From a bacterium (lineage in GTDB: Bacteria; UBA9089; JASEGY01): a stretch of DNA of 64,000 nucleotides. Position numbers and translations under genes: made by a program. The notes beneath the pieces were generated by a model. It saw only the letters and a program-made list of their open reading frames with translations, did no database searches and was not told where the DNA came from. Within the stretch, counting starts at the first letter, position 1; every line of letters begins with the position of its first letter. The stretch is taken from NCBI GenBank assembly GCA_040753085.1, contig JBFMHI010000002.1, positions 4,087 to 68,086 of the forward strand. The letters run 5' to 3'. Positions 7,499 through 62,352 of this stretch are shown here, one piece after another.

Positions 7499-10291
7499 TC
7501 AACCGGCTTCTTCTCTAAAGACGTTAACCCGGTTGCGTCCCTCTTGTTTGGCTTGATATAAGGCCTTATCGGCTCTTTCAAAAAGTTCTTTTTTGGATGG
7601 GGCAGGAAAGGCCGATACGCCTAAGCTGGCTGACAAAGGGATTGTTTTATCATTAATGGCATAAGGATGTTTAGCTATGGCCTCTCTAATCCTTTCGGCC
7701 ACCTGAGCGGCTTCCTCTTTAATCGTTTCCGGGAGGATGGCCCCAAATTCATCTCCCCCAAAGCGGGCTAAATAGTCTACCGCTCTTATTTGCCGACCGA
7801 CAATATCGGCGATGGTTTTGATCAGCCGATTTCCTTCTTCATGGCCGTAGCGGTCGTTTATCTCTTTTAAGTAATCGAAGTCTAACATAATAAAGGAAAG
7901 GGCGCGGTTGAATTTCCTGGCCCGTTCAAATTCGGCCTCTAATAGACGGTCAAAATAGCGGAAATTGTAAGTCCCAGTCAGCTCATCCCTTTCCGCTTGC
8001 TTCTTGGTCTCGGCAAAAAGCCTGGCCCGGTCGGTGGCTACTCCGGTTTGACTGGCAATAATGGCTATTAACCTCCGATCCAGGGCCGTATATTGATTTC
8101 TCTCTAAATGCTCGATATCTAAAAGTCCAGTGATTACCCCCTTTTCTTTTATCGGGGCAGTAATGAAGGACTTCATTTCTTCCTGGGTAACGGATCCCAA
8201 GACCTCGTATTCACTTTCTTTAATGGAAAACTTGATCTTCCTTTTCTCATCAGGATGAAATTTTTGCCAGGCGCTATTGAGTCGTTCCTCTACGCCTCTT
8301 CGACAGTTTATATCCAGGGGACAGGTTTCCTTTATCTTTCCTATAAGCCGGCCTTCGTCCTCCAGAACATAGGCCCCAAGGTGATAGTCAAAATAAGGCC
8401 TCATCTTTTCCATTACTATTTCTAAAATCCCCTCTGGTGCTTTCATCGGGGCAATCTCTTTGATCGTCTCATAGAGAAGTTTAAGCTCACGGGCCTCGGC
8501 TCTTATCTGGCCCAATTCCTCTTTCTCCTGCCGAAGTCTGTCTAAGCTTTCGGCATAGATCTGTCTGGTTTCCTCATCCGGAGCCTCTTCGTATTGTTTT
8601 TCCGTCTCAGTGATTTCATCCTCCAGGCCAAAGAGCCTGGAGGCTCGCTTGGCCTCCTCTTCCCAGCCTTTTATTTCATCTGTTTGTTCTTTGAGTCTGG
8701 CCTCTTTTTGCTTCAATTCGTCTCCCAGTTTAGCCTTCTCCTCAATAAACCGGATTTGGTCTGTATCTCTTTGTCTTTCAAGCAATTGCATTTCTTTAAT
8801 CTTTTCTTCCAGCCTTTGTCTCTCCTCCTGGATTTTATTCTGATATTCAGCGATTTCCTGGGCCATCCTTTCTGTTTCTTCCCGGGCCTTCTGTCTCAAT
8901 ACCTCTGTTTCCGTCCTTACCCTTTCTTCTACCTCTTCGGCGTATTTGGCCCTTAAGGCAGCCGCCTCTTGTTCTATTTTAGCCCTTTCCGTTTGAATTT
9001 GAGCTTTCAGACCCCTCATTTCTTCCTGAAGCACGGCCAATTGGACGGACTTCTCTTCCGCCTTTTGCCTTTCTTCATCAGCGGCCGCCGCTAATCTTTC
9101 CATCTCGGCCTTTAACCCGGCCAATTCTTCTGCCCGGACGGCGGCCTGCTTTTGCTCAGCCCAGGCCACCGCCTTAGCCTCTTCTAATTCCGCCACCCTT
9201 TTAGCTACTTCAGCCGCTTTCTCTTCCTGGGCCCGGCAATATTCCACCATCCCCTCTACGGCTGATCCAATGTAACCGGTCACCTTAGCCAAAGAACTTA
9301 TATCATTTTCATTAAAGGCCCTTCGGGTAGCCTCATTGTTGATATTCAAGGCCCCCACCACCTTATCCCTTATTTTAAGAGGAGATATCATCAGGGATTT
9401 GGTGTAGTACTTCTTCTTACTCCTTTTGATCCCAAAACGGGGGTCTTTCTCAATATCTTCCACCAGAAGGGGGGCGCCTGTTTTAATCACATGTCCTACA
9501 ATCCCCTCACCATATTTTAACCTGGTGCGTTTAATAATTTCATCTTCCAGCCCCACCGCGGCTTTAATAGTAATATCGCCTGTTTCTTCATCCATGACCA
9601 TTAGGGAACAGATCCTGGAATTCATGGCCCTGGTAGCTAAATCGACTACCAGGGCATAGAATTGCTCCGGCGCCAGATCAATGAGCAGGTCTCTGTTGAG
9701 CTTGAAGATGTCATAAAACTGCCTGGTGGCATCAATTTCAACATTTTCTTCCGTCAGCCTTTCTCCAGCGATAATAAGGTCTATGGAAGCCTGGGCCAAA
9801 AGACTGACTAATTCCGCCTCTTTCCTTAGCTTAGCCAGAGAAGCCGCCGGAGCGCCCTCAATGGCCGCTAAAAATTCCTCTTCCTTAAGCTCTAACTCCC
9901 TGGCCGTCTTTTGATAGACTTCCCTCTCCTGTTCCGATTCGATTACCTGACAGCAGCCGATAACCCCCAGCATCTCTTTATCCACCATAATGGGACTGTT
10001 AAAAGTAAGAAAACCAGCCGGACATGGACCGATGGCCACTTTTCTCTCTTCTTTGATCCTCTGCAAGGCGGCCAGAAAGGTCTCTTCACATTGTTTGCTT
10101 CCCTTGGCCCTTTCTTTGATCATCTTACAGTAAGGATGATCTTCCTTCTCCCGGTAGATAAAGTCTCCCCTTTCATCACCTACCCAACAGTAAACCGAAC
10201 CCAGCTTGTGAAGAAGTATCTCCCGGATGGTCCTCTGCCACATAGTGCTGTCCACAAAATCCTTCAGGTGTCTTTTTATCTTTATATCCAT
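7499..10291 (-). CDS. GGDEF diguanylate cyclase with GAF domain(s) and a roughly 250-aa E/K/A/R-rich coiled coil
   Basis: C-terminal RFGGDEF motif with a typical cyclase context; GAF-like segments; long central heptad-like charged repeat region. Confidence 0.85.
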   Translation of the reverse strand: MDIKIKRHLKDFVDSTMWQRTIREILLHKLGSVYCWVGDERGDFIYREKEDHPYCKMIKERAKGSKQCEETFLAALQRIKEERKVAIGPCPAGFLTFNSPIMVDKEMLGVIGCCQVIESEQEREVYQKTARELELKEEEFLAAIEGAPAASLAKLRKEAELVSLLAQASIDLIIAGERLTEENVEIDATRQFYDIFKLNRDLLIDLAPEQFYALVVDLATRAMNSRICSLMVMDEETGDITIKAAVGLEDEIIKRTRLKYGEGIVGHVIKTGAPLLVEDIEKDPRFGIKRSKKKYYTKSLMISPLKIRDKVVGALNINNEATRRAFNENDISSLAKVTGYIGSAVEGMVEYCRAQEEKAAEVAKRVAELEEAKAVAWAEQKQAAVRAEELAGLKAEMERLAAAADEERQKAEEKSVQLAVLQEEMRGLKAQIQTERAKIEQEAAALRAKYAEEVEERVRTETEVLRQKAREETERMAQEIAEYQNKIQEERQRLEEKIKEMQLLERQRDTDQIRFIEEKAKLGDELKQKEARLKEQTDEIKGWEEEAKRASRLFGLEDEITETEKQYEEAPDEETRQIYAESLDRLRQEKEELGQIRAEARELKLLYETIKEIAPMKAPEGILEIVMEKMRPYFDYHLGAYVLEDEGRLIGKIKETCPLDINCRRGVEERLNSAWQKFHPDEKRKIKFSIKESEYEVLGSVTQEEMKSFITAPIKEKGVITGLLDIEHLERNQYTALDRRLIAIIASQTGVATDRARLFAETKKQAERDELTGTYNFRYFDRLLEAEFERARKFNRALSFIMLDFDYLKEINDRYGHEEGNRLIKTIADIVGRQIRAVDYLARFGGDEFGAILPETIKEEAAQVAERIREAIAKHPYAINDKTIPLSASLGVSAFPAPSKKELFERADKALYQAKQEGRNRVNVFREEAG

Positions 10292-11055: not shown

Positions 11056-11099
11056 TTTCTCCTTGTATTAGTCCTCAGGGCAATCACCCCAAATTTTAT

Positions 11100-11283
11100 C
11101 GACCTGTATGGTTAGCTTAACCTTACTCACATCTTTTAAAAACCACGAAGCACACGAAGCACACGAAGAATTATAGAACAAATCTTTTAATCCCATTTAC
11201 CTTACCCTTAAATTACTTTCTTCGTGAACTTCGTGTTCTTTGTGGTTTATTTTTGCTTTTCCCTACCTAATCATACAGGTCGA
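11100..11283. mobile_element. MITE-like element with TIR CGACCTGTATGGTTA / TAATCATACAGGTCG, internal CACGAAG heptamer arrays and an 8-bp TSD AATTTTAT
   Basis: AATTTTAT is present immediately on both sides (11092-11099 and 11284-11291). The TIR is related to the 33216-33473 element; the internal arrays ccacgaagcacacgaagcacacgaag / cttcgtgaacttcgtg are inverted relative to each other. Confidence 0.65.
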
Positions 11284-11311
11284 ATTTTATTTTTAGCTTT
11301 TAGGCGGGTCA

Positions 11312-14861: not shown

Positions 14862-15070
14862 ATACTCGATACTCGATACTCGATGCTCGATACTCGATGT
14901 TCGATACTGGATATTGGATCCTTTACTAGCCTCGAGCATCGAGGATCGAGCATCGAGCATCGAGGATCGAGGATCGAGCATCGAGGATCGAGCATCGAGC
15001 ATCGAGGATCGAGGATCGAGGATCGAGGATCGAGCATCGAGGATCGAGGATCGAGCATCGAGCATCCAGC
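14862..15070. repeat. CATCGAG-family heptamer hairpin (left array CTCGATR about 6 units, centre GGATCCTTTACTAGCC, right array about 20 units of CATCGAG/GATCGAG)
   Basis: Directly visible tandem heptamers; it lacks the outer GTAACCGTTCA termini seen at other copies. Confidence 0.7.
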
Positions 15071-15073
15071 CTA

Positions 15074-15301
15074 ATGGCAAAGAGAGAAGAAATGAAAGAA
15101 AAGATAGATAGGTTAAAGAAGTTTTTAAAGGAAGTCTGGTTGGAAGTAACCCCTTCTCATGGCAAGGTGGCCTGGCCTTCTCGAAAAATGATCGTGGGGT
15201 CAACTACTGTTGTCTTTATTGCCGTGGCGATCATCAGTGTTTATATCGGTCTGGTAGATGTCATTCTATCCAAGACCATAAATTTTATTATTAGCAGGTG
15301 A
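15074..15301 (+). CDS. secE: preprotein translocase subunit SecE
   Basis: 75 aa with a single C-terminal TM helix and the KVxWPSRKM motif; position before nusG. Confidence 0.8.
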   Translation: MAKREEMKEKIDRLKKFLKEVWLEVTPSHGKVAWPSRKMIVGSTTVVFIAVAIISVYIGLVDVILSKTINFIISR

Positions 15302-16007: not shown

Positions 16008-16181
16008 AGCCTCTATATAGTAGCCTTACCTAGCGAAACCACAACATATTGTGTTTAGGTGTTTAAAAGTTAGCTAAAATTCCTAAAAAACGGCTTTCTA
16101 TGCAACCTATAAAAGGAGACGAACCACAATATATTGTGTTCTGTAAGCTTCAAAATCAATATGTGGTGGCTGAGTAGTTAC
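16008..16181. mobile_element. MITE-like hairpin element with TIR GTAACTACTCAGCC / GGCTGAGTAGTTAC and a perfect 8-bp TSD ATTTATTG
   Basis: ATTTATTG at 16000-16007 and 16182-16189; internal palindromic units aaccacaacatattgtgtt and aaccacaatatattgtgtt. Confidence 0.7.
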
Positions 16182-16188
16182 ATTTATT

Positions 16189-16337
16189 GTAACCGTTCAT
16201 CACATGATGCTTGATCCTCGATGCTCGATGCTCGATCCTCGATGCTGGTAAAGGATCCAGTATCCAGGATCGAGCATCGAGCATCGAGCATCGAGCATCG
16301 AGGTTGTGTCTTTGTGGCTTAGTGGCTGAACGGTTAC
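16189..16337. mobile_element. CATCGAG-family MITE (TIR GTAACCGTTCA / TGAACGGTTAC, inverted heptamer arrays around centre GGTAAAGGATCCAGTATCCAGG)
   Basis: gtaaccgttcatcacatgatg...ctcgatg arrays...catcgag arrays...ggctgaacggttac; inserted directly beside the previous element. Confidence 0.7.
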
Positions 16338-16372
16338 TAATTATTAATGATAACTGATCTTAAGGAGTAATC

Positions 16373-17349: not shown

Positions 17350-17425
17350 CTATTAGGGCGATGTTCATCCTTTTGGCCATTTGTCGAATCGCTAATCTTG
17401 AATTGCGAATCGCCAATCTATCTTT

Positions 17426-17559
17426 GTAACCGTTCAGCACATGATGCTGGATGCTCGATGCTCGATCTTCGATGCTGGTAAAGGATTCAGTATCCAGGAT
17501 CGAGCATCCAGCATCGAGGATCGAGGATCGAGTTTGTGCCTTAGGGGCTGAACGCTTAC
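17426..17559. mobile_element. CATCGAG-family MITE (TIR GTAACCGTTCA / TGAACGCTTAC) nested between ATTCGCG heptamer arrays at 17385-17418 and 17572-17612
   Basis: gtaaccgttcagcacatgatgctggatgctcgatgctcgatcttcgatgctggtaaaggattcagtatccaggatcgagcatcc...ggctgaacgcttac, with flanks aattgcgaatcgccaatct and aattcgcaattcgcgatccgcgattcgcgatt. Confidence 0.7.
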
Positions 17560-17664
17560 CTAAGTCTTTTAATTCGCAATTCGCGATCCGCGATTCGCGA
17601 TTAATCCGTAAGCGGCCCCAACGATGAACAAGGCCACAATATTGTTAATGGTTAAGGAGGCAAG

Positions 17665-27469: not shown

Positions 27470-28456
27470 ATGTTCAAGATGGCTAATAATAGACAGATGA
27501 CATTATTAAAGGCAGAAGAGGAGCATATCAGGAGGGTTCTTCCCTTACTCCTAAAGAAAGATGACAGGTTTAGAACCGAGGTCTCTATTATCCTAAGCGA
27601 GGTCTTTGCCAAGAAGGATGAGCTAAGGATAGTTATAGAGGAGATTCAGAAAAGCAGAGAAGAGACAAGCCGAAGGTTTGAGGAGATGCGAGAAGAGACA
27701 AGCCGAAGGTTTGAGGAGATGCGAGAAGAGACAAACCGAAGGTTTGAGGAGATGCGAGAAGAGACAAACCGAAGGTTTGAGGAGATGCGAGAAGAGACAA
27801 ACCGAAGGTTTGAGGAGATGAACCAAAGGTTTGAAGAACATCGCGAAGAGACAAACCGAAGGTTTGAGGAGATGAACCGAAGGTTTGAAGAACATTGCGA
27901 AGAGACAAACCGAAGGTTTGAGGAGATGAACCGAAGGTTTGAAGAACATCGCGAAGAGACAAATAAGAGGTTTGAGGCAGTAGAAACCCAACTTCAGGAA
28001 CAAACAAAGCAGCTAAGGGAGCATTCAGTCCAACTTCAGGAACAATCAAGGGAAATAAGAAGGATGGGGATAAGCATCAGAACCGTAGGGGCAAGGTGGG
28101 GAATATTTGCTGAAGGGACAATCCGAAATACCTTAAAGGAGCTACTCCTCAAAAAGCTTAAAGTAAAAGAGGTATCCTCGTGGAAGGTAATGGATAAAGA
28201 GGGAAAGGTAGGTATTCCTAATTCAGAGGTAGAGGTAGACATCCTTATCCAGAATGAGAAGCATTTTCTAATAGAGATAAAATCCTCTGCCGATGAAGAA
28301 AATGTAGAGAGGTTTTATAAAATAGGAAATTTTTATTATGAGAAGACAAAGATTAAGCCAAATCTTATCTTTGTAGCGGTGGAGATGAACAAAAAGGGAG
28401 AAGACCTCTGCAAAAAACTAGATATCCAGCTTATAACCTACGAGGATTTGGACTGA
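27470..28456 (+). CDS. tandem-repeat coiled-coil protein with a C-terminal PD-(D/E)XK (restriction-endonuclease-like) domain, possibly DUF3782-like
   Basis: About nine 11-aa repeats REETNRRFEEM, then a C-terminal region with EVEVDILIQNEKHFLIEIKSS (D..E.K pattern) and LIFVAVEM; inserted between rpoC and rpsL. Confidence 0.65.
   Translation: MFKMANNRQMTLLKAEEEHIRRVLPLLLKKDDRFRTEVSIILSEVFAKKDELRIVIEEIQKSREETSRRFEEMREETSRRFEEMREETNRRFEEMREETNRRFEEMREETNRRFEEMNQRFEEHREETNRRFEEMNRRFEEHCEETNRRFEEMNRRFEEHREETNKRFEAVETQLQEQTKQLREHSVQLQEQSREIRRMGISIRTVGARWGIFAEGTIRNTLKELLLKKLKVKEVSSWKVMDKEGKVGIPNSEVEVDILIQNEKHFLIEIKSSADEENVERFYKIGNFYYEKTKIKPNLIFVAVEMNKKGEDLCKKLDIQLITYEDLD
27655..27985 (+). repeat. array of about nine 33-nt tandem repeats (gaagagacaagccgaaggtttgaggagatgcga) inside the CDS
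   Basis: Directly visible near-identical 33-mers; they produce the spurious antisense ORFs 27623-28003 and 27633-28049. Confidence 0.85.
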
Positions 28457-30632: not shown

Positions 30633-32717
30633 ATGGCGGAAACAATTTTACTTAAGTATATTAGAAATATTGGTATTATGGCTCATATCGATGCTGGTAA
30701 GACCACCACTACAGAGCGGATGCTTTACTATACTGGTAAAGTTTATAAGTTGGGTGAAGTCGATGCTGGCACCGCTACTATGGATTGGATGGAACAGGAG
30801 CAGGAGCGTGGGATTACTATCACGGCGGCCGCCACCACCCTATCCTGGCGAGATCACCGGATCAACCTTATTGATACGCCCGGACACGTAGATTTTACTA
30901 TGGAAGTGGAGCGGTCTTTAAGGGTTCTCGATGGGGCCGTGGCTCTTTTCTGTTCGGTAGGGGGAGTAGAACCTCAATCAGAGACGGTCTGGCATCAGGC
31001 TGAGAAATACAAGATTCCAAGGATTGCCTTTGTTAATAAGATGGATAAGGTAGGCGCTAATTTCCATCAAGTTATCCGAATGATGGAAGAGAGGCTTTCG
31101 GCGCGGGCCGTTCCGATACAACTTCCGATAGGTAGCGAAGAAAATTTTGTGGGTGTCATTGATTTAGTGGGAATGAAGGCTATCCGCTGGCAAGCTGATG
31201 ACTTGGGGGCCAGTTTTACGGTGGAAGATATTCCGGAAGATTATTTAGAAGAAAGCTGGCATCATCATAATTTACTTATCGAGGCGCTGGCTGAATCCGA
31301 TAATGAATTAATGGAGAAATATATTGAGGAGGAAGATATAAGCGAGGCTGAAATTAAGGCAACTCTCAGAAGGCTGACCATTGGGGCTAAGATATCCCCT
31401 GTTTTATGTGGGAGTTCCTTTAAAAACAAAGGAGTTCAGCCGCTGCTTGATGCCATTGTTGATTATTTACCGGCGCCCTCCGACGTTCCCGCTGTGGTGG
31501 GGATTAATCCTGACACAGAGGTAAGAGAAGAGAGGCTCGGGACCAAAGAGGAACCCTTTTCTGCCCTTATCTTTAAGGTGGCGGCTGACCCCTATGTGGG
31601 GAATTTAAGTTACATTCGGGTGTATTCAGGTTCTTGTGCCACCGGGGACCAGGTTTATAATTCAGTGGTCAGGAAGAGAGAACGACTAGGCCGGCTTGTT
31701 CAGATGCATGCTAACAAGAGGGCGGATATTAAGGAGGTTTCGGCCGGGGATATTGTGGCCATAGTCGGACTAAAAAATACCGCTACCGGTCAGACCCTAT
31801 GTGATCGAAATCATCCTATCCTCCTGGAATCCATTCACTTTCCTGAACCGGTTATCTCGGTAGCTATAGAGCCTAAAACAAAATTGGATGAGGAAAAGCT
31901 GTCTCTTTGTCTTTCTTCTTTATCACAGGAGGATCCGACTTTCAAGGTGGTCACGGATCCGGAGACCGGCCAGATGATCATATCCGGGATGGGGGAGCTT
32001 CATCTTGAAGTCTTAACCGACCGGATGCAAAGGGAATTCAAGGTCGGGGTGAGGGTAAGTAAACCTCATGTCGTTTATCGGGAGACGATAAGGCGAAGCG
32101 TCAAATCCGAAGGTAGATATATCAAACAAACGGGTGGGCGCGGCCAGTATGGACACGTTTGGATTGAATTTATTCCTGGTGAACCAGGCTCCGAATTTAC
32201 TTTTACTAATCGAATTGTAGGCGGAGCTATTCCCAAAGAATATATTTCAGCGGTGGAAAAGGGGGTTAAAGAAGCGGCTGAACATGGAGTTCTGGCCGGC
32301 TATCCCTTAGTGGATTTTGAGGCTGTTCTTTATGATGGTTCCTACCATGAAGTTGATTCATCCGAACTGGCCTTTAAAAATGCCGGGGCTTTAGCCCTTA
32401 GAGAGGGGCTTAAACGGGCGGCCCCTGTTTTGCTGGAGCCGGTAATGAAGATAGAAGTTGTTGTTCCGAGGGATTTTACGGGAGATGTAATTGGTGATCT
32501 TAATGCCAGGCGGTCCAATATTTCCGGGATGGAACCTCGGGGCAGAGAGACCCAGGTAATTAAAGGAATCGTTCCTTTAGCCGAGATGTCCGGCTACGCT
32601 ACCTCCCTCAGGTCGTTAACCCAGGGCCGGGCAACCTATCATATGGAATTTTCTCACTATGAAGAGGTCCCGCGTCAAATCTCGGATGAGATTACCAAGG
32701 GATTGAAGGCGGCCTAA
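30633..32717 (+). CDS. fusA: translation elongation factor G
   Basis: [19 protein letters not shown] and DTPGHVDF G-domain motifs; 694 aa. Confidence 0.97.
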
Positions 32718-32723
32718 AACTAA

Positions 32724-32811
32724 GCTCGATGCTCGATGCTCGATGCTGGGTAAAGGATCCCGTATCCAGGATCGAGCATCCAGCATCGAGGATCGAGCAT
32801 CGAGGATCGAG
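32724..32811. repeat. CATCGAG-family heptamer hairpin (no outer TIR) directly after the fusA stop
   Basis: gctcgatgctcgatgctcgatgctgggtaaaggatcccgtatccaggatcgagcatccagcatcgaggatcgagcatcgaggatcgag. Confidence 0.7.
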
Positions 32812-32821
32812 AGGAGTTGTT

Positions 32822-33130
32822 GTGGTTTCCCAAAAGATTCGTATTAAGCTTAATGCCTATGACCATAGGATCCTGGATCAGTCGGCGGGTGAAATTGTTT
32901 CTACGGCTAATCGGACCGGCGCCAGGGTGGCCGGCCCTATCCCTCTGCCGACAAAGATAAGTCGATATACGGTCTTAAGATCCCCTCACGTGGATAAAAA
33001 GTCAAGGGAACAATTTGAAATGCGCATCCACAAAAGGGTCTTGGATATCCTGGAGCCGACTGAAGATACCATCGCGGCTTTAATGAAGTTAGAGCTTCCG
33101 GCAGGAGTCGAGGTAGAGATAAAGCTCTAA
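32822..33130 (+). CDS. rpsJ: 30S ribosomal protein S10 (GTG start assumed)
   Basis: ...[43 protein letters not shown]... matches S10. The track ORF start at 32729 reads through the heptamer repeat; RBS gaggag at 32811. Confidence 0.85.
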
Positions 33131-33215
33131 TTAGGGCGGACTTGTATCTACTCAGCCCTCATAGGGAACACCGATTATCCAGATTTTTCCCTGATGGCCC
33201 AGATTAAAAATAATT

Positions 33216-33473
33216 CGACCTGTACGGTTAGGTTGTAGACTACTGACGCTGAAAGCGTTGAATTTTAAATAGCCGTAGATGCAATCTCCGGAAACAAATC
33301 GCCACGCTCGACCCTGCAAGGGTCGAATATTATCCATCGCCTAGAATTCAACCCTTTCAGGGTTGAGATGTTCGTAGCTGTTTTACCTTCCGCAGGTTTC
33401 ACCTGTGGTTATGTAAAATTCAAACCTTTCAGGTTTGAAGGGAATTGCTTGTAATCTCTAACCGCACAGGTCG
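33216..33473. mobile_element. 258-bp MITE-like element (TIR CGACCTGTACGGTTA / TAACCGCACAGGTCG), internally a chain of short hairpins, perfect 8-bp TSD AAATAATT; second copy at 50696-50949
   Basis: AAATAATT at 33208-33215 and 33474-33481; internal hairpins gacgctGAAAgcgtc, cgaccctGCAAgggtcg, caaccctTTCAgggttg, caaaccTTTCAggtttg, ccgcaggtttcacctgtgg. The two copies are about 90% identical. Confidence 0.75.
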
Positions 33474-33570
33474 AAATAATTCCTGAGAAGGGCTGAAATC
33501 GGGGTGCCTCTTTTGGTTTGGCTGAATATTTAGATGGGGGAGTGCAGGATAAAAAACCATGAATAAACAA

Positions 33571-33600
33571 TCCGAAATCCGAAATCCGAAATCCGAAATG
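33571..33600. repeat. AATCCGA heptamer array (x4) immediately upstream of / overlapping the rplC start
   Basis: caatccgaaatccgaaatccgaaatccgaaatg. Confidence 0.7.
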
Positions 33601-34230
33601 CGATTAGGCATTTTAGGGAAAAAAATCGGGATGACTCAGATATTTGGAGAGGCCCAGCAGCTTATTCCAGTAACTGTTATTGAGACTAAGCCTTGTGTAG
33701 TAACCCAGGTTAAAAGCCGGGAGTCGGAGGGATATAATGCGGTCCAACTGGGCTTTGAAAAACAAAAAGAAGGGCTGGTGGCCAAACCCCTTTTAGGCCG
33801 GTTCAAGAAGGTTAAGATACCTCCTATGAAATATTTGAGAGAATTCAGGTTGGATGATATTTCGGGGCACGAAGTTGGCCAGGAAGTGAGAGTAGAAAGT
33901 CTCTTTAAGCCGGGAGAATATGTGGATGTCACCGGAACATCTAAAGGAAAAGGATTTGCGGGGGTGGTTAAGCGATGGGGTTTTAAAGGCGGGAAGGCCA
34001 GCCATGGTTCTATGTTTCACCGGGCGCCCGGTTCTATTGGCGCTTCAGCGGCTCCGTCCAGGGTCTTTAAAGGGACCAGGCTTCCAGGACGGATGGGGGG
34101 AAAACAGAGCACCATTCAAAATCTAGAGATAGTCAAGGTAGAGGCAGAGAAAAATTTGCTTTTAGTTAAAGGAGCGGCCCCCGGGAAAAAGGGGGAACTT
34201 CTGGTTATCAGGAAAGCGAAGAAGAGGTAA
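33598..34230 (+). CDS. rplC: 50S ribosomal protein L3 (start taken at the MRLGILGKKIGMTQIF Met)
   Basis: The canonical L3 N-terminus begins at the Met at 33598. The track start at 33559 would add an extension encoded by the heptamer array. Confidence 0.85.
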   Translation: MRLGILGKKIGMTQIFGEAQQLIPVTVIETKPCVVTQVKSRESEGYNAVQLGFEKQKEGLVAKPLLGRFKKVKIPPMKYLREFRLDDISGHEVGQEVRVESLFKPGEYVDVTGTSKGKGFAGVVKRWGFKGGKASHGSMFHRAPGSIGASAAPSRVFKGTRLPGRMGGKQSTIQNLEIVKVEAEKNLLLVKGAAPGKKGELLVIRKAKKR

Positions 34231-37574: not shown

Positions 37575-37592
37575 TTAGCCATTAACAATTAT

Positions 37593-37754
37593 GTAACCGT
37601 TCATCCCATAAGGCTGGATGCTGGATGCTCGATTCTCGATGTTCGATCCTCGATGCTGGATACTGGATCCTTTACCAGCATCGAGGATCGAACATCGAGA
37701 ATCGAGCATCGAGCATCGAGGATCGAGTTTGTGCCTTAGGGGCTGAACGCTTAC
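37593..37754. mobile_element. CATCGAG-family MITE with TIR GTAACCGTTCA / TGAACGCTTAC and a perfect 8-bp TSD ACAATTAT
   Basis: ACAATTAT at 37585-37592 and 37755-37762; inverted heptamer arrays around centre GGATACTGGATCCTTTACCAGC. Confidence 0.8.
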
Positions 37755-37787
37755 ACAATTATTAATTGTTAATGGTAAATTATAATT

Positions 37788-44452: not shown

Positions 44453-44463
44453 TTAATAATTGG

Positions 44464-44597
44464 TAACCGTTCATCCCATGAGGCTAGAGGCTCGATCCTC
44501 GATGCTCGATGCTGGTAAAGGATCCAGTATCCAGGATCGAGCATCGAAGATCGAGCATCGAGTGGGTGTTTTTGTGCCTTACGGGCTGAACGCTTAT
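44464..44597. mobile_element. CATCGAG-family MITE (TIR GTAACCGTTCA / TGAACGCTTAT) with a perfect 8-bp TSD AATAATTG
   Basis: AATAATTG at 44456-44463 and 44598-44605. Confidence 0.8.
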
Positions 44598-44621
44598 AAT
44601 AATTGTTAATTATTAAGAAGG

Positions 44622-48718: not shown

Positions 48719-48730
48719 TTAACAATTATC

Positions 48731-48866
48731 GTAACCGTTCATCACATGATGCTCGATGCTCGATCCTGGATGCTCGATGCTCGATGACGGGATCCTTTTT
48801 TATCATCGAGGATCGAGCTTCGAGGATCGAGTTGGTGTCCTTGTGCCTGAGGGGCTGAACGTTTAC
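48731..48866. mobile_element. CATCGAG-family MITE (TIR GTAACCGTTCA / TGAACGTTTAC), TSD CAATTATC / CAATTATT (7 of 8)
   Basis: gtaaccgttcatcacatgatgctcgatgctcgatcctggatgctcgatgctcgatgacgggatccttttttatcatcgaggatcgagcttcgaggatcgag...ggctgaacgtttac. Confidence 0.75.
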
Positions 48867-50545: not shown

Positions 50546-50695
50546 GGCGTTTACCTTCCGCCAGCTACCTAACAGTCAATGTATTTCTTTTTCATGCCGA
50601 TTCTCCTTTCTATAACACATTGCTATCATATTAGAGATATCGACATAATTGCCTAATAACTAAATCAAAGGTCATGGAAAAATTTCGACCTGTAC

Positions 50696-50949
50696 GGTTA
50701 AGGTTGTAGACTACTACTGACGCTGAAAGCGTCAAATTTTAAATAGCCGTAGGTGCAAGCTACGGAAGATAAATACATCCGCAACGCTCGACCCTGCAAG
50801 GGTCGAATTATCCATCACATAGAATTCAACCCTTTCAGGGTTGAGCTGTGGTAGATGCTTCGTTTCCGCAGGTTTTACCTGTGGTTATGTAAAATTCAAA
50901 CCTTTCAGGTTTGAGGAGAATTGCTTGTAATTCCTAACCGTACGGGTCG
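50696..50949. mobile_element. second copy of the approximately 258-bp structured MITE (TIR CGACCTGTACGGTTA / TAACCGTACGGGTCG)
   Basis: About 90% identical to 33216-33473, including all internal hairpins. Confidence 0.75.
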
Positions 50950-50957
50950 AAATTTTT

Positions 50958-51245
50958 CGACCTGTGAAATAGGTTTATACAAATATCCCCCAATTAGGGT
51001 AAGAAAGAGAATAAACAGATCGCTCCTCTGGAGCTAATTTGTTATGAGAGATATATTCTACAAACATGTCGCTCCTCTGGAGCTAACCTGAATAAAGCTC
51101 CGTAGGAGAGCAATCTGTTTGTAGTATTTCGCAAAAGCAATATATTTGCAGCTCCGTAGGAGCGACCTGTTTTTAGTAGTAGAGCTTGAATATCTATGTC
51201 TATGGGAAGTTTCTTGCATTTTATTTAAATCTATTTCACAGGTCG
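50958..51245. mobile_element. 288-bp MITE (20-bp TIR CGACCTGTGAAATAGGTTTA / TAAATCTATTTCACAGGTCG) with a perfect 8-bp TSD AAATTTTT; the internal GCTCC-nnn-GGAGC hairpin units (GTCGCTCCTACGGAGC and its variant GCTCCAGAGGAGC) are arranged as a long palindrome; inverted copy at 62578-62866
   Basis: AAATTTTT at 50950-50957 and 51246-51253; the element is inserted immediately after the terminus of the previous element. Confidence 0.8.
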
Positions 51246-56219: not shown

Positions 56220-56378
56220 GTTTACCCCCTTTATCTATTACCCAATATATCATAGATATAATCTTATTTCAAGACATTTTTATCTTGAGCCATCTGTGAA
56301 GAATGAAAATCTTGACTTCGCCCCTGATTTATGTTATGATAAGCGTTGAAAATGGAGAGCAGTGTCAAAAGATATACG

Positions 56379-56467
56379 GTAACCGTTCATCCCTCGATGC
56401 TGGATCCCCGATGCTCGATGCTCGAGCATCGGGGATCGAGTTTGTGCCTTAGTGGCTGAACGCTTAC
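56379..56467. mobile_element. short CATCGAG-family MITE (TIR GTAACCGTTCA / TGAACGCTTAC)
   Basis: gtaaccgttcatccctcgatgctggatccccgatgctcgatgctcgagcatcggggatcgagtttgtgccttagtggctgaacgcttac. Confidence 0.7.
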
Positions 56468-56531
56468 GAAATATGAAAGTGGATATGTTAGGCTCTTGTT
56501 TCTCTGGAAGGACAAGTGAAGATTAGGCCCT

Positions 56532-60595: not shown

Positions 60596-61537
60596 TCAGG
60601 TAGCTGAGAGGTGTCCACCCCAGCGGAGCTTTGTTTTCAAGACCTGGTAAAAACTCCTGGCCTCGGGCTTGACTAAATAAATACACTCTTTGGCCTTTCC
60701 GGCGGTGATTCTGTCGCCTGACTTTAATGGATAGCCTGACTGGCCATCCTGGGTGAGCATCATCTCTCCTCGCGGTCCGGAGGAGACAACCAGGGATATC
60801 TCCTCATCAGGGCCAATGATGACAGGTCGCAGGGCCAGGGTATGAGGGCAAATAGGCGTGGCCATCAAGACCTCTAATCCGGGATTCAAGATTGGCCCAC
60901 CAGCCGAGAGGGAGTAAGCCGTAGAGCCGGTGGGGGTGGCCAGGATCATCCCGTCGGCTTCAAAGTTGGCTACTAATTCATCAGCAATAAAGAGGGTAAT
61001 GTTGATAGACCTGGCTAATGCCCCGCAGGTGATGACCACATCGTTTAAGGCCTTAAAGGCGGCGGCTTCAGTTCCTTCTCTCTCCACCTTCGCCTCCAGC
61101 ATCATCCTGGGCTCCAGTTCAAAGCGGTGGGCTAAGATGGACTCGATGGCAGGAAAAAGTTCCTCCTGGGTTACTTCGGTTAGAAAACCCAGGCTGCCTA
61201 AATTCACCGCCAGAATAGGCACGCCTTCAGGCCAGGCCAGTTGGGCCGTGTGAAGAAGGGTGCCATCTCCGCCCAGGGCGATAAGTAGGTCGGCCTCAGC
61301 TCCCAAATTAGCTGAAACAGAAATGGCTTTCTTGGCCAGGTCTAAAGACGCCCCTGGTTCGATAAGGGCCTTAATGTCCTTCTTATCCAGCCAGTCAATC
61401 AATTTAGAGGCCACTACTGCCGCCCCTGGCCGGTAAGGATTGACTACCAAACCTATCTTCTTTATGGCGGATGGCGCACCCACTTTGTGGGTAGCCGGGA
61501 TTGCGGATTGCGGATTGCGGATTGCGGATTGTTTCAT
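60596..61537 (-). CDS. nadK: NAD+ kinase (true start probably downstream of the repeat-encoded N-terminus)
   Basis: GGDGTLL motif and NAD-kinase fold. The track N-terminus MKQSAIRNPQSAIP is translated from a CAATCCG heptamer array. Confidence 0.85.
   Translation of the reverse strand: MKQSAIRNPQSAIPATHKVGAPSAIKKIGLVVNPYRPGAAVVASKLIDWLDKKDIKALIEPGASLDLAKKAISVSANLGAEADLLIALGGDGTLLHTAQLAWPEGVPILAVNLGSLGFLTEVTQEELFPAIESILAHRFELEPRMMLEAKVEREGTEAAAFKALNDVVITCGALARSINITLFIADELVANFEADGMILATPTGSTAYSLSAGGPILNPGLEVLMATPICPHTLALRPVIIGPDEEISLVVSSGPRGEMMLTQDGQSGYPLKSGDRITAGKAKECIYLVKPEARSFYQVLKTKLRWGGHLSAT
61493..61532. repeat. CGGATTG heptamer array (x5) at the 5' end of nadK
   Basis: gggattgcggattgcggattgcggattgcggattg. 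Confidence 0.7.
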
Positions 61538-61555
61538 CAGAAAAACTCCCTAATA

Positions 61556-61640
61556 TGGATGCTGGATGCTCGATACTCGATACTCGATACTCGATGCTCG
61601 AGCCTCGAGTATCGAGTATCGAGTATAGAGCATCGAGGAT
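61556..61640. repeat. CATCGAG-family heptamer hairpin (no outer TIR)
   Basis: gatgctggatgctcgatactcgatactcgatactcgatgctcgagcctcgagtatcgagtatcgagtatagagcatcgagg. Confidence 0.7.
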
Positions 61641-61644
61641 GGCG

Positions 61645-62352
61645 TTACGCCTCCCCCAGGTAGGCCCTTTTGACCTGCTCATTATTAAGGAACCATTTTG
61701 CCTGGCCGGAAAGGGTAATTCGGCCTGTCTCCAGGACATATCCCCGGTTGGCTAATTTTAAGGCCATATGGGCGTTCTGCTCTACCAGGAAAATAGTCAC
61801 GCCCTCTTTATTTATTTCTTCAAGAATAGTGAAAATCTGCTGAACCAGTTTGGGGGCCAGCCCCAGAGAAGGCTCATCCAGCAGGAGGAGTTTAGGCCTG
61901 GCCATCAATCCCCGGCCAATAGCCAGTATCTGCTGTTCTCCGCCGCTTAGGGTTCCGGCTATCTGTTTCCTTCGCTCCTTAAGGATAGGAAAGAGATTAA
62001 AGACCCTGTCCATATCAGCTTTAATCCGCCCTTTATCCTGATTGAGGTAAACGCCTATCTCCAGGTTTTCTATGACGGTCATATCGGAGAAAAGCCGGCG
62101 ACCTTCGGGAACCTGGCAGATGCCAAGTTTCACAATCTCAGTCGTAGGCAGCCGGGTGATATCTTTACCCTGAAATTCGATCAGCCCGGTTCTTTTTTCT
62201 ACTACCCCGCAAATAGTATTAAGGGTGGTCGACTTTCCGGCCCCGTTAGATCCAATCAGGGTAACGATCTCCCCTTCAGCTATTTGAAGAGATATCTCTC
62301 TCAAGACCTGACGATGACCGTAAAAAGCCGATACCAAATCGAGTTTGAGCAT
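61645..62352 (-). CDS. livF: branched-chain amino acid-type ABC transporter ATP-binding protein (LivF-like)
   Basis: Walker A GSNGAGKST, signature LSGGEQQ, Walker B LLLLDEPS. Confidence 0.85.
   Translation of the reverse strand: MLKLDLVSAFYGHRQVLREISLQIAEGEIVTLIGSNGAGKSTTLNTICGVVEKRTGLIEFQGKDITRLPTTEIVKLGICQVPEGRRLFSDMTVIENLEIGVYLNQDKGRIKADMDRVFNLFPILKERRKQIAGTLSGGEQQILAIGRGLMARPKLLLLDEPSLGLAPKLVQQIFTILEEINKEGVTIFLVEQNAHMALKLANRGYVLETGRITLSGQAKWFLNNEQVKRAYLGEA

Follow-up and report, generated by a model that had tools for sequence, protein, structure and literature searches.

Guerillot et al. (2014, PMC3942029) count the transposases of the IS256, ISLre2 and ISKra4 insertion sequences (ISs) as prokaryotic Mutator-like. 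In this superfamily the inverted repeats, of 18-39 bp, have a conserved terminal C, and the target duplications are 8 or 9 bp long (PMC3942029). Here we describe a 258-bp element, copy A, which occupies exactly positions 33216-33473 of a 64,000-nucleotide stretch of bacterial DNA (the window), in the spacer between the ribosomal protein genes rpsJ and rplC, together with its relatives in the same window, copies B and C. Like the miniature inverted-repeat transposable elements (MITEs) of Mutator-like ISs (the IS256 / ISLre2 / ISKra4 group, PMC3942029), the element has inverted repeats beginning with a terminal C and an 8-bp duplication, and it is non-coding, multi-copy, intergenic and in the size range of 180-560 bp. 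It differs from them in that its interior is an unrelated hairpin cassette and not a shortened IS. It differs from the ISKra4 family in that its parent appears to be a distant or undescribed branch, below the curated cutoff.

Other small repeats offer further comparisons. The REP, BIME and REPIN sequences of proteobacteria are also inverted palindrome pairs that form one long or separate small hairpins, and they too occupy spacers of operons and are tolerated when transcribed. The inverted pairs of short imperfect palindromes, the position within an operon and the potential for a long hairpin would thus suit an element of REP/BIME or REPIN type, moved by a RAYT (an HUH tyrosine transposase). 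On evidence that did not include a search for RAYT genes, we find this scarcely credible, because REPINs lack terminal inverted repeats (TIRs) and target duplications and are moved by RAYTs, whereas the window element has clear TIRs of DDE type, identical to those of a DDE IS, and 8-bp duplications; it also lacks a conserved GTAG-type REP head. The Correia elements of Neisseria and the BOX and RUP elements of Streptococcus are likewise small, TIR-bounded or modular, prone to strong fold-back and often co-transcribed, and BOX is built from hairpin modules, as is the window element. There is no sequence relationship to any of the three, and the Correia duplication is TA. Correia, BOX and RUP are known to influence promoters, RNase III processing or mRNA stability.

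The closest likeness to the interior is the motif Acido-Lenti-1 (RF01687), which Weinberg et al. (2010, PMC2864571) put forward as a probable RNA. In its layout, a hairpin of 8 bp is joined by an A/U-rich linker of 10-13 nt to a 5-bp mini-hairpin with a UUC-type triloop, and this layout recurs in the window as H5-TTATGTAAAA-H6 and in the mirror arm H2/H1 (hairpins are numbered H1 to H6; Table 1). The window copies nevertheless score nothing against this model at its gathering threshold (37 bits) or at E<=10. The middle hairpin is CCGCAGG/CCTGTGG in the window and CCCAGGG/CCCTGGG in Acido-Lenti-1, and the window unit lies subterminally in a transposon, occurs there in both orientations and has covariation of DNA type. 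The hairpin cassette of this MITE is related to Acido-Lenti-1 in architecture.

Overall, we think it probable that the element is a MITE mobilised in trans, with a hairpin cassette that exists at the level of DNA and is transcribed passively. A Mutator-like DDE transposase, closest to ISKra4 and then to ISLre2, would act on this non-coding, non-autonomous element by recognising 17-nt TIRs that begin with the terminal C, and insertion into A/T-rich sites would produce an 8-bp target duplication, as copies A and C show. The interior consists of two mirror-image half-units, each with an inner, a middle and an outer hairpin (Ha, Hb and Hc) followed by a TIR. Hairpins would be maintained on both strands as DNA, their stems covarying by strict Watson-Crick exchange. 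The outcome would be a compact palindromic cassette, mobilisable and tolerated in either orientation.

Ends, target duplications and the parent insertion sequence

Copy A starts with C and ends with G. Its 17-nt TIRs, CGACCTGTACGGTTAGG and CGACCTGTGCGGTTAGA, differ at two positions, and the duplication AAATAATT is perfect (8/8). The first-pass annotation of this DNA had described a mobile element with a target-site duplication and had placed it at 33216-33473; these ends and the flanking 8-bp direct repeat bear out both the mobility and the 258-bp boundaries. The second copy that it reported at 50696-50949 also exists and ends where stated, and its true start is 50686, 10 bases away. Copies A and B share 91% mean column identity over the aligned region, flanks included. 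Copy C has a perfect duplication, AATTTTAT (8/8), at 11092-11099 and 11283-11290, and an interior unrelated to that of A and B, made of inverted CACGAAG-type heptamers without the hairpin triplet. It too lies between co-directional genes, in a pilin-like cluster on the - strand. At <=3 mismatches the window has six occurrences of the TIR word, where 0.01 would be expected, and these occurrences are all the termini of A, B and C, three family members within 64 kb.

Beyond the window, we scanned species-representative genomes with the 16-nt TIR TCGACCTGTAYGGTTA. This gave many chance matches inside genes of GC-rich genomes, and only matches with A/T-rich flanks are informative. The class that abuts A/T-rich sequence is found in Bacteroidales, Prevotellaceae, Geobacteraceae, Desulfobacterales, Nitrospinota, Methylococcaceae, Anaerolineales, Clostridia and unclassified metagenome-assembled genomes (MAGs), and such TIRs often enclose small complete elements, 131-564 bp long, across many phyla. 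One 3-kb instance (L047) contains a disrupted gene whose C-terminus matches ISKra4, and a search with its protein recovered 348 relatives of ~450 aa, mostly on IS-sized contigs of ~2 kb. An intact IS of 1755 bp with A/T-rich flanks lies at 1142-2896 of L241, from another metagenome. Its ends, GCGACCTGTACGGTTAAG ... CTTAACCGTACAGGTCGA, agree with the window TIR over 15-16 nt, and it codes for a small open reading frame (ORF) and a 458-aa transposase, P0010. In L244 and in L242/L243 the same right end follows directly after the transposase stop codon. The best NCBIfam match of P0010, P0048 and P0075 is ISKra4 (NF033572; 79.2, 75.6 and 65.1 bits; E = 3e-22 to 6e-18), followed by ISLre2 (E = 1e-13 to 1e-10).

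The window elements combine TIRs, a target duplication, small non-coding size (258, 264 and 183 bp) and ends in common with an autonomous IS. Since the same ends bound an intact 1.75-kb IS coding for an ISKra4-like transposase, the element is almost certainly a MITE. That the transposase family mobilising it is prokaryotic Mutator-like and ISKra4-like is highly probable. The parent IS (L241) is without the hairpin chain, so the interior of the MITE is not a shortened IS.

The terminal C and the 8-bp duplication follow the published superfamily rule, with the ~17-nt inverted repeat at the lower edge of the published range. Some elements, L241 and L112 among them, also fit an alternative reading in which the TIR starts at TCGACC and the duplication is 6 bp long. 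Sequence alone is indecisive between the two, and we have retained the 8-bp, terminal-C boundaries because they agree with that rule (PMC3942029).

The same TIR is found with the hairpin chain or with heptamer runs, and as judged from these elements window-type ends carry at least two styles of filler. MITEs with the window TIR and an interior of CACGAAG- or GGGTTCA-like inverted heptamers include copy C, L046 (4161-4491), L093 and L008; heptamer-filled MITEs with this TIR occur in Deltaproteobacteria / Thermodesulfobacteriota MAGs and in Yes70-08, a relative of the window genome.

Two further observations concern elements with window-type ends. The candidate autonomous element in L047 (379-3437) is itself interrupted, and by eye the inserted ORFs (818-2110) are possibly of ISAzo13 type (Rhodopirellula-type DDE). 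In MAG210 (JBFMDD01) many contigs end ~120 bp into an element that starts with the window TIR and continues with identical A/T-rich sequence (L002, L011, L012, L049, L057, L065, L075, L076, L079, L083 and L113); a putative high-copy IS or MITE with window ends evidently fragmented this assembly.

The hairpin cassette and its relatives

Each of copies A and B contains six local hairpins in three mirror pairs, H1/H6, H2/H5 and H3/H4. The first-pass annotation had counted five perfect hairpins; short perfect hairpins are indeed present, and the hairpins number six. It had also distinguished GNRA-like from TTTCA loops. Both kinds are present (T-GAA-A or T-GCA-A in the left arm, T-TTC-A in the right), but they are largely mirror images of each other. 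The whole element is a degenerate palindrome, its left half being 59% (A) or 67% (B) identical to the reverse complement of its right half. No reading frame in the element exceeds 61 aa; the longest (61 aa) runs past the element end. A 61-aa reading-frame translation of the element had no homologue in a protein database search. We also considered the loops as anticodon-loop mimics (CU-UUC-AG or CU-GCA-AG) and dropped the idea, as the flanking bases pair and the loops shrink to 3 nt.

Between copies A and B, differences fall at 5/110 hairpin positions (4.5%), 3/38 TIR positions (8%) and 22/114 spacer positions (19%), the contrast between hairpins and spacers being significant (Fisher p = 8e-4). 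Compared stem by stem, the copies show none of the compensatory substitutions that had been reported between them, and the stem given as an example (cgaccctGCAAgggtcg) is a case of plain conservation. H3 and H4 are the same in A and B, H5 differs in the loop alone, and H6 only at the outermost pair (T-A -> T·G). The core of H1 is unchanged, and two outer G·U pairs of A are Watson-Crick in B; H2 has three differences, all non-compensatory. Mirror hairpins inside one element do show compensatory pair changes, four in A and six in B, and these double changes keep the local stems perfect yet degrade left-right complementarity. The earlier statement that stems are kept rather than overall sequence is supported by mirror hairpins and by related half-units, and its claim of compensatory changes between A and B is not supported.

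To look for related cassettes we scanned metagenomes for the two central boxes, as CCCTGCAAGGG N20-45 CCCTTTCAGGG, which returned at least 120 matches. All the central-box matches listed contain the same nested palindrome with covarying stems on both sides of each box. They form at least 61 sequence clusters, to all of which the 11-nt boxes are common, and none of those listed is a copy of the 258-bp family. For 61 cluster representatives taken together with copy A, pairing in the long-range helix is 77.7%, covariation there is heavy, and the local mini-hairpin extension is supported mainly at the first flanking pair. The TIR and six-hairpin order of the window recur in L149 (242 bp, 8257-8498) and L155, both metagenome matches, and in L099, L040 and L085, genome matches selected by TIR. 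All five have the loops of H1, H3, H4 and H6 as in the window, with different stems. A peat-metagenome family of ~330 bp (14 copies aligned) has the same hairpin chain between quite different TIRs, GGTTCTTCGCTGTTTTCGGTGGAAT / ATTCCACCGAAAACAGCGAAGAACC. This family includes L164, L126, L132, L183, L122 and related loci, and in some of its copies the loop of the left CCCAGGG hairpin is enlarged by an insertion of 30 bp.

A half-unit, read from the centre to the end, consists of Ha, Hb, Hc and TIR. We aligned eight of them, drawn from both arms of A and B and from L149, L155 and L099; 94% of positions are paired, and 11/21 pairs have changed on both sides. A covariance model built from this alignment, R1, finds only the four arms of A and B in the window, even with filters off, and scores the copy B arms at 110-115 bits. 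Its matches in the metagenome loci number at least 173 at E<=0.01, and a central module is typically flanked by two of them, one to the left and one to the right. The 111 matches with E<=1e-5 went into a larger alignment, many of whose sequences are related to each other; here 92.5% of positions are paired, and both partners have changed in 18/21 pairs. Shuffling lowers the covariation score from 0.44 to 0.165, and sliding the partners lowers it to <=0.08. The covariation that was to be looked for once more copies had been aligned is therefore present, and the stems are genuinely maintained. The same half-unit layout characterises more than 100 palindromic metagenome elements, some with the window TIR and many with other termini, and its stretch from Hb through the linker to Hc is the part that Rfam names Acido-Lenti-1. 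Since many half-units lie on single metagenome contigs, half-unit copy number appears to be high within single genomes. Half-units in tandem or at several sites were seen on L125 (2122-2800, 12362-12627), L153 (242-514, 3167-3442, 5922-6203), L167 and L179.

Conservation of this kind could mean that a protein recognises the hairpins, above all the CCCT-NNN-AGGG boxes and the middle hairpin of CCCAGGG type. It could be a nucleoid or DNA-structure-binding factor of the host, or a protein accessory to transposition, and it would bind double-stranded palindromes or extruded or single-stranded hairpins. Arguing for this case, hairpins are conserved between A and B as well as the TIRs are and better than the spacers (the rates given above), the 11-nt boxes are common to at least 61 distinct element clusters, the order and spacing of the hairpins and the orientation of their loops do not vary with respect to the ends, and palindromic half-sites suit dimeric binders. 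Counter to this, no candidate protein has been identified, the autonomous IS is without these sites, stems outside the boxes vary freely, and box conservation was partly imposed by the pattern with which the loci were fetched. The first-pass annotation had named a protein-recognition structure as an alternative; we keep it as an unlikely but live one.

RNA or DNA

The first-pass annotation had suggested a functional RNA carried as a passenger, ribozyme- or retron-like, and by extension the hairpin chain could be a structured RNA (a small RNA, or a ribozyme- or retron-like one) expressed from the S10 transcript. Several features are what such an RNA would show. The predicted fold is very stable, and related elements show strong covariation in the stems. 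Loops are conserved in sequence and orientation, and copies A and B are both co-oriented with their flanking genes. In addition, the related Hb-Hc unit has been proposed as a probable RNA, as Acido-Lenti-1 (PMC2864571), and this Rfam model matches in L197 and L142.

Strand comparisons point the other way. Copy A folds at -99.5 kcal/mol on the + strand (z -7.9 relative to shuffles) and at -108.1 kcal/mol on the - strand (z -9.5), and copy B at -115.6 (z -10.7) and -109.4 kcal/mol (z -10.6), respectively, so that across A and B neither strand has a consistently better fold. Among the 111 half-units, Hb has 851 Watson-Crick, 14 G·U and 14 A·C pairs, and Hc has 540, 0 and 7. Watson-Crick pairs thus make up 96-98% of the covariation in Hb and Hc, and G·U pairs do not outnumber A·C. 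Wobble pairs are as common on one strand as on the other (23 vs 25 and 39 vs 28) in the long-range stems that surround the central boxes. An apparent strand asymmetry of wobbles beside these boxes persisted with shifted partners, was accordingly compositional, and was discarded. Modules showed no orientation bias relative to flanking ORFs, which is weak evidence given a crude ORF caller. Each element contains one half-unit per orientation, and any transcript would therefore hold a sense and an antisense unit.

Searches for known RNAs gave a similar answer. Rfam covariance models, a check that the first-pass annotation had suggested, matched no family in the whole window, nor at E<=10 over 33100-33600; ribozyme classes, retron RNAs, Acido-Lenti-1 and the other families were all without a match, and the low-scoring matches were chance-level ones to unrelated eukaryotic models. 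No reverse transcriptase gene lies beside copy A, which sits between rpsJ and rplC, or beside copy B, between rplQ and recO; this negative covers these neighbours and not the rest of the window. With near-pure Watson-Crick covariation, no favoured strand and no Rfam match, the hairpins behave as a DNA palindrome and not as a strand-specific RNA. We regard a functional RNA as improbable, and on balance we favour maintenance at the DNA level over maintenance at the RNA level. The hairpins of copy A in the S10 transcript would then be passively carried stem-loops, not a catalytic, templating or regulatory RNA.

Strict Watson-Crick stems with almost no G·U are also what templated copying of one arm from the other would produce. 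The hairpins could accordingly be functionless, as quasi-palindromes perfected by intrastrand template switching during replication, with compensatory changes arising without selection. Consistent with this, mirror hairpins diverge from one another while each stays perfect, the parent IS transposes without hairpins, and many MITEs with the same TIR lack them. Against it, the hairpins of A and B are conserved in sequence too, with no converted pair, where ~17 hits would be expected at the spacer rate. The three-hairpin order, the spacing and the loop triplets also recur in more than 100 elements with different termini, and a generic mutational process does not predict such recurrence. We consider a pure by-product unlikely.

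If the cassette is instead a DNA-level feature of the MITE, the element would have to fold back as single-stranded or supercoiled DNA, and hairpin-templated repair would re-perfect its stems. We offer this rationale for the hairpins tentatively. More speculative still is the suggestion that the three-hairpin half-unit, with its CCCT-NNN-AGGG boxes and oriented TTC-type triloops, may be a portable selected module, captured repeatedly by unrelated transposon ends in distant phyla, and that Acido-Lenti-1 may be the subterminal cassette of a MITE-like superfamily with six hairpins. If so, the module would act through a hairpin-binding host protein, or through extrusion or fold-back that joins the ends of very short transposons, and its portability would explain its spread even into essential operons. 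Acido-Lenti-1 matches flank the modules of L197 and L142, the left one on the - strand and the right one on the +; those in L142 and L197 score 43.6, 43.5 and 41.1 bits and lie inside R1 matches. Sub-threshold matches of 23.3 and 20.2 bits lie inside the TIR-bounded elements L085 and L040.

Several points weigh against the explanation of the element as a trans-mobilised MITE with a DNA-level cassette. Concerning mobilisation, the 64-kb window contains neither an autonomous IS with these ends nor a transposase of this type, and the link from MITE to transposase rests on ISs in other organisms. The scores of these transposases fall far short of the curated ISKra4 cutoff (79 vs 205 bits), which makes 'ISKra4 family' an approximation; they are related to the family rather than established members of it. 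The target duplication of copy B is imperfect, its 8-bp flanks AAAAATTT / AAATTTTT agreeing at only 6/8. Just two copies of the exact 258-bp family were found, with no further ones in plasmids (blastn), in two viral-contig scans or among the fetched loci (BLAST). No empty insertion site was found, the sole relative (L245) having other repeats in that spacer. Concerning the cassette, the 111-half-unit alignment (A4) was fitted to the model structure, and most metagenome loci were fetched by the central-box pattern; both inflate the apparent conservation of Ha. The benefit of fold-back is a proposal alone, and since the parent IS lacks the hairpin chain, hairpins are not needed by the transposase itself. 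Finally, the loop triplets are strongly oriented relative to the ends, with TTC in 73/111 outer hairpins. This goes beyond pure two-strand symmetry and could reflect shared ancestry or strand-specific recognition.

For annotation, the explanation we prefer would remove a structured-RNA candidate from the S10 operon and relabel it as a transposon remnant. R1 links the TIR of ISKra4-like ISs from many phyla, the six-hairpin palindromic cassette and the orphan motif Acido-Lenti-1. The suggestion from this is that, in at least some cases, what covariation has turned up as a candidate RNA is a DNA palindrome belonging to a mobile element, and the ratio of G·U to A·C pairs would be a cheap discriminator between the two.

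Genomic setting and other repeats

Copy A begins 85 nt past the rpsJ stop codon and ends 124 nt ahead of the rplC start codon (Table 1). No sigma-70-type promoter came up in a consensus scan of 32700-33700, and the terminator-like sites there are all weak ones, such as H1 with AATTTTAAAT after it (+) and a mirror site (-). From gene order it is a reasonable inference that copy A is co-transcribed within the S10 operon mRNA.

Table 1. Coordinates of the elements, their hairpins and the neighbouring genes. Ha, Hb and Hc are the half-unit hairpins modelled by R1.
Feature	Position	Strand	Details
Left target-site duplication copy, A	33208-33215		AAATAATT; same 8-mer at 33474-33481
Left TIR, A	33216-33232	+	CGACCTGTACGGTTAGG; first base is the terminal C; 15-16 nt also bound the intact IS in L241
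H1, outer left	33244-33260		TGACGC-TGAAA-GCGTTG; mirror of H6; R1 Hc match, - strand
H2, middle left	33273-33291		CCGTAGA-TGCAA-TCTCCGG, one T·C mismatch; mirror of H5; R1 Hb
H3, inner left	33308-33326		TCGACCCT-GCA-AGGGTCGA; contains box CCCTGCAAGGG; identical in copy B
H4, inner right	33348-33366		TCAACCCT-TTC-AGGGTTGA; contains box CCCTTTCAGGG; identical in copy B
H5, middle right	33390-33408		CCGCAGG-TTTCA-CCTGTGG; R1 Hb
H6, outer right	33419-33439		TTCAAACCT-TTC-AGGTTTGAA; R1 Hc
Right TIR, A	33457-33473	-	Reverse complement of CGACCTGTGCGGTTAGA
Right target-site duplication copy, A	33474-33481		AAATAATT
fusA	30633-32717	+	Upstream of rpsJ
rpsJ (S10)	32822-33130	+	Upstream neighbour of copy A; 86% DNA identity to rpsJ of relative L245
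rplC (L3)	33598-34230	+	Downstream neighbour of copy A; rplD onward follows, +
Copy B	50686-50949	+	264 bp, orientation as copy A; downstream of rpoA and rplQ, upstream of recO
H1, copy B	50718-50734
H2, copy B	50747-50765
H3, copy B	50788-50806
H4, copy B	50826-50844
H5, copy B	50866-50884
H6, copy B	50896-50914
Truncated left-end TIR	50958-50966	+	CGACCTGTG; exactly 8 bp (AAATTTTT) past the right end of copy B
Copy C	11100-11282	+	183-bp MITE; TIRs CGACCTGTATGGTTAG / CGACCTGTATGATTAG

Beyond the right end of copy B, a weak R1 match (50934-51040, - strand) spans the truncated TIR. The stretch 50950-50966 looks like a head-to-tail tandem or circle-derived junction, or like the remnant of a second copy that shares the target duplication.

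The L3 protein of the window is 100% identical to one NCBI entry, 'MAG: 50S ribosomal protein L3 [bacterium]' (P0121). Its next relative, from the MAG Yes70-08 (L245), is at 75%, and all others are at <=66%; with L3 relatives this remote, the source lineage is, on protein identity, deep and uncultured. L245 was the only relative found. Its rpsJ-rplC spacer is likewise long (444 bp) and is occupied by a different repeat, which is also present upstream of rpsJ; the flanks of the spacer are not alignable to the window. The rpsJ-rplC spacer is evidently a tolerated landing site, and a lineage that accepts repeats there provides a test case for structured inserts in an essential polycistronic mRNA. 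The repeat in L245 is ~160 bp long (GTATAGCTCTTAAGATAAATATTTTGGGG...), with one copy in each of the fusA-rpsJ and rpsJ-rplC spacers (2036-2200, 2715-2935), and a run of N lies within the second copy in this assembly.

In both the window (30633-33130) and L245, rpsJ comes directly after fusA, without tuf between them. An AATCCGA heptamer run at 33571-33599 abuts the rplC start codon and is kept in Yes70-08 (L245 2975-3005), where the annotated rplC start lies within the repeat.

Arrays of the heptamers ATCGAGG/ATCGAGC and their complements occur throughout the window, often as inverted halves bounded by GTAACCGTTCA ... TGAACGGTTAC. They are found at 14868-15080, 16180-16340, 17417-17590, 32720-32815, 37584-37770, 44454-44620, 48722-48865, 56370-56475 and 61493-61680, and one such array fills the fusA-rpsJ spacer. 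They look like a second, more abundant family of MITE-like or palindromic repeats.

At 1676-1706 there is a perfect hairpin with a 14-bp stem and a T-GAA-A loop (GCCGGGGGATGACTGAAAGTCATCCCCCGGC). It is not associated with a TIR and may be a terminator or an unrelated palindrome. Tandem repeats of 33/54 bp with CAAACCGAAGGTTTG hairpins, at 27638-27973, lie inside a 328-aa ORF (27470-28456) and encode a peptide repeat of the REETNRRFEEM type; they are coding and unrelated to the MITE.

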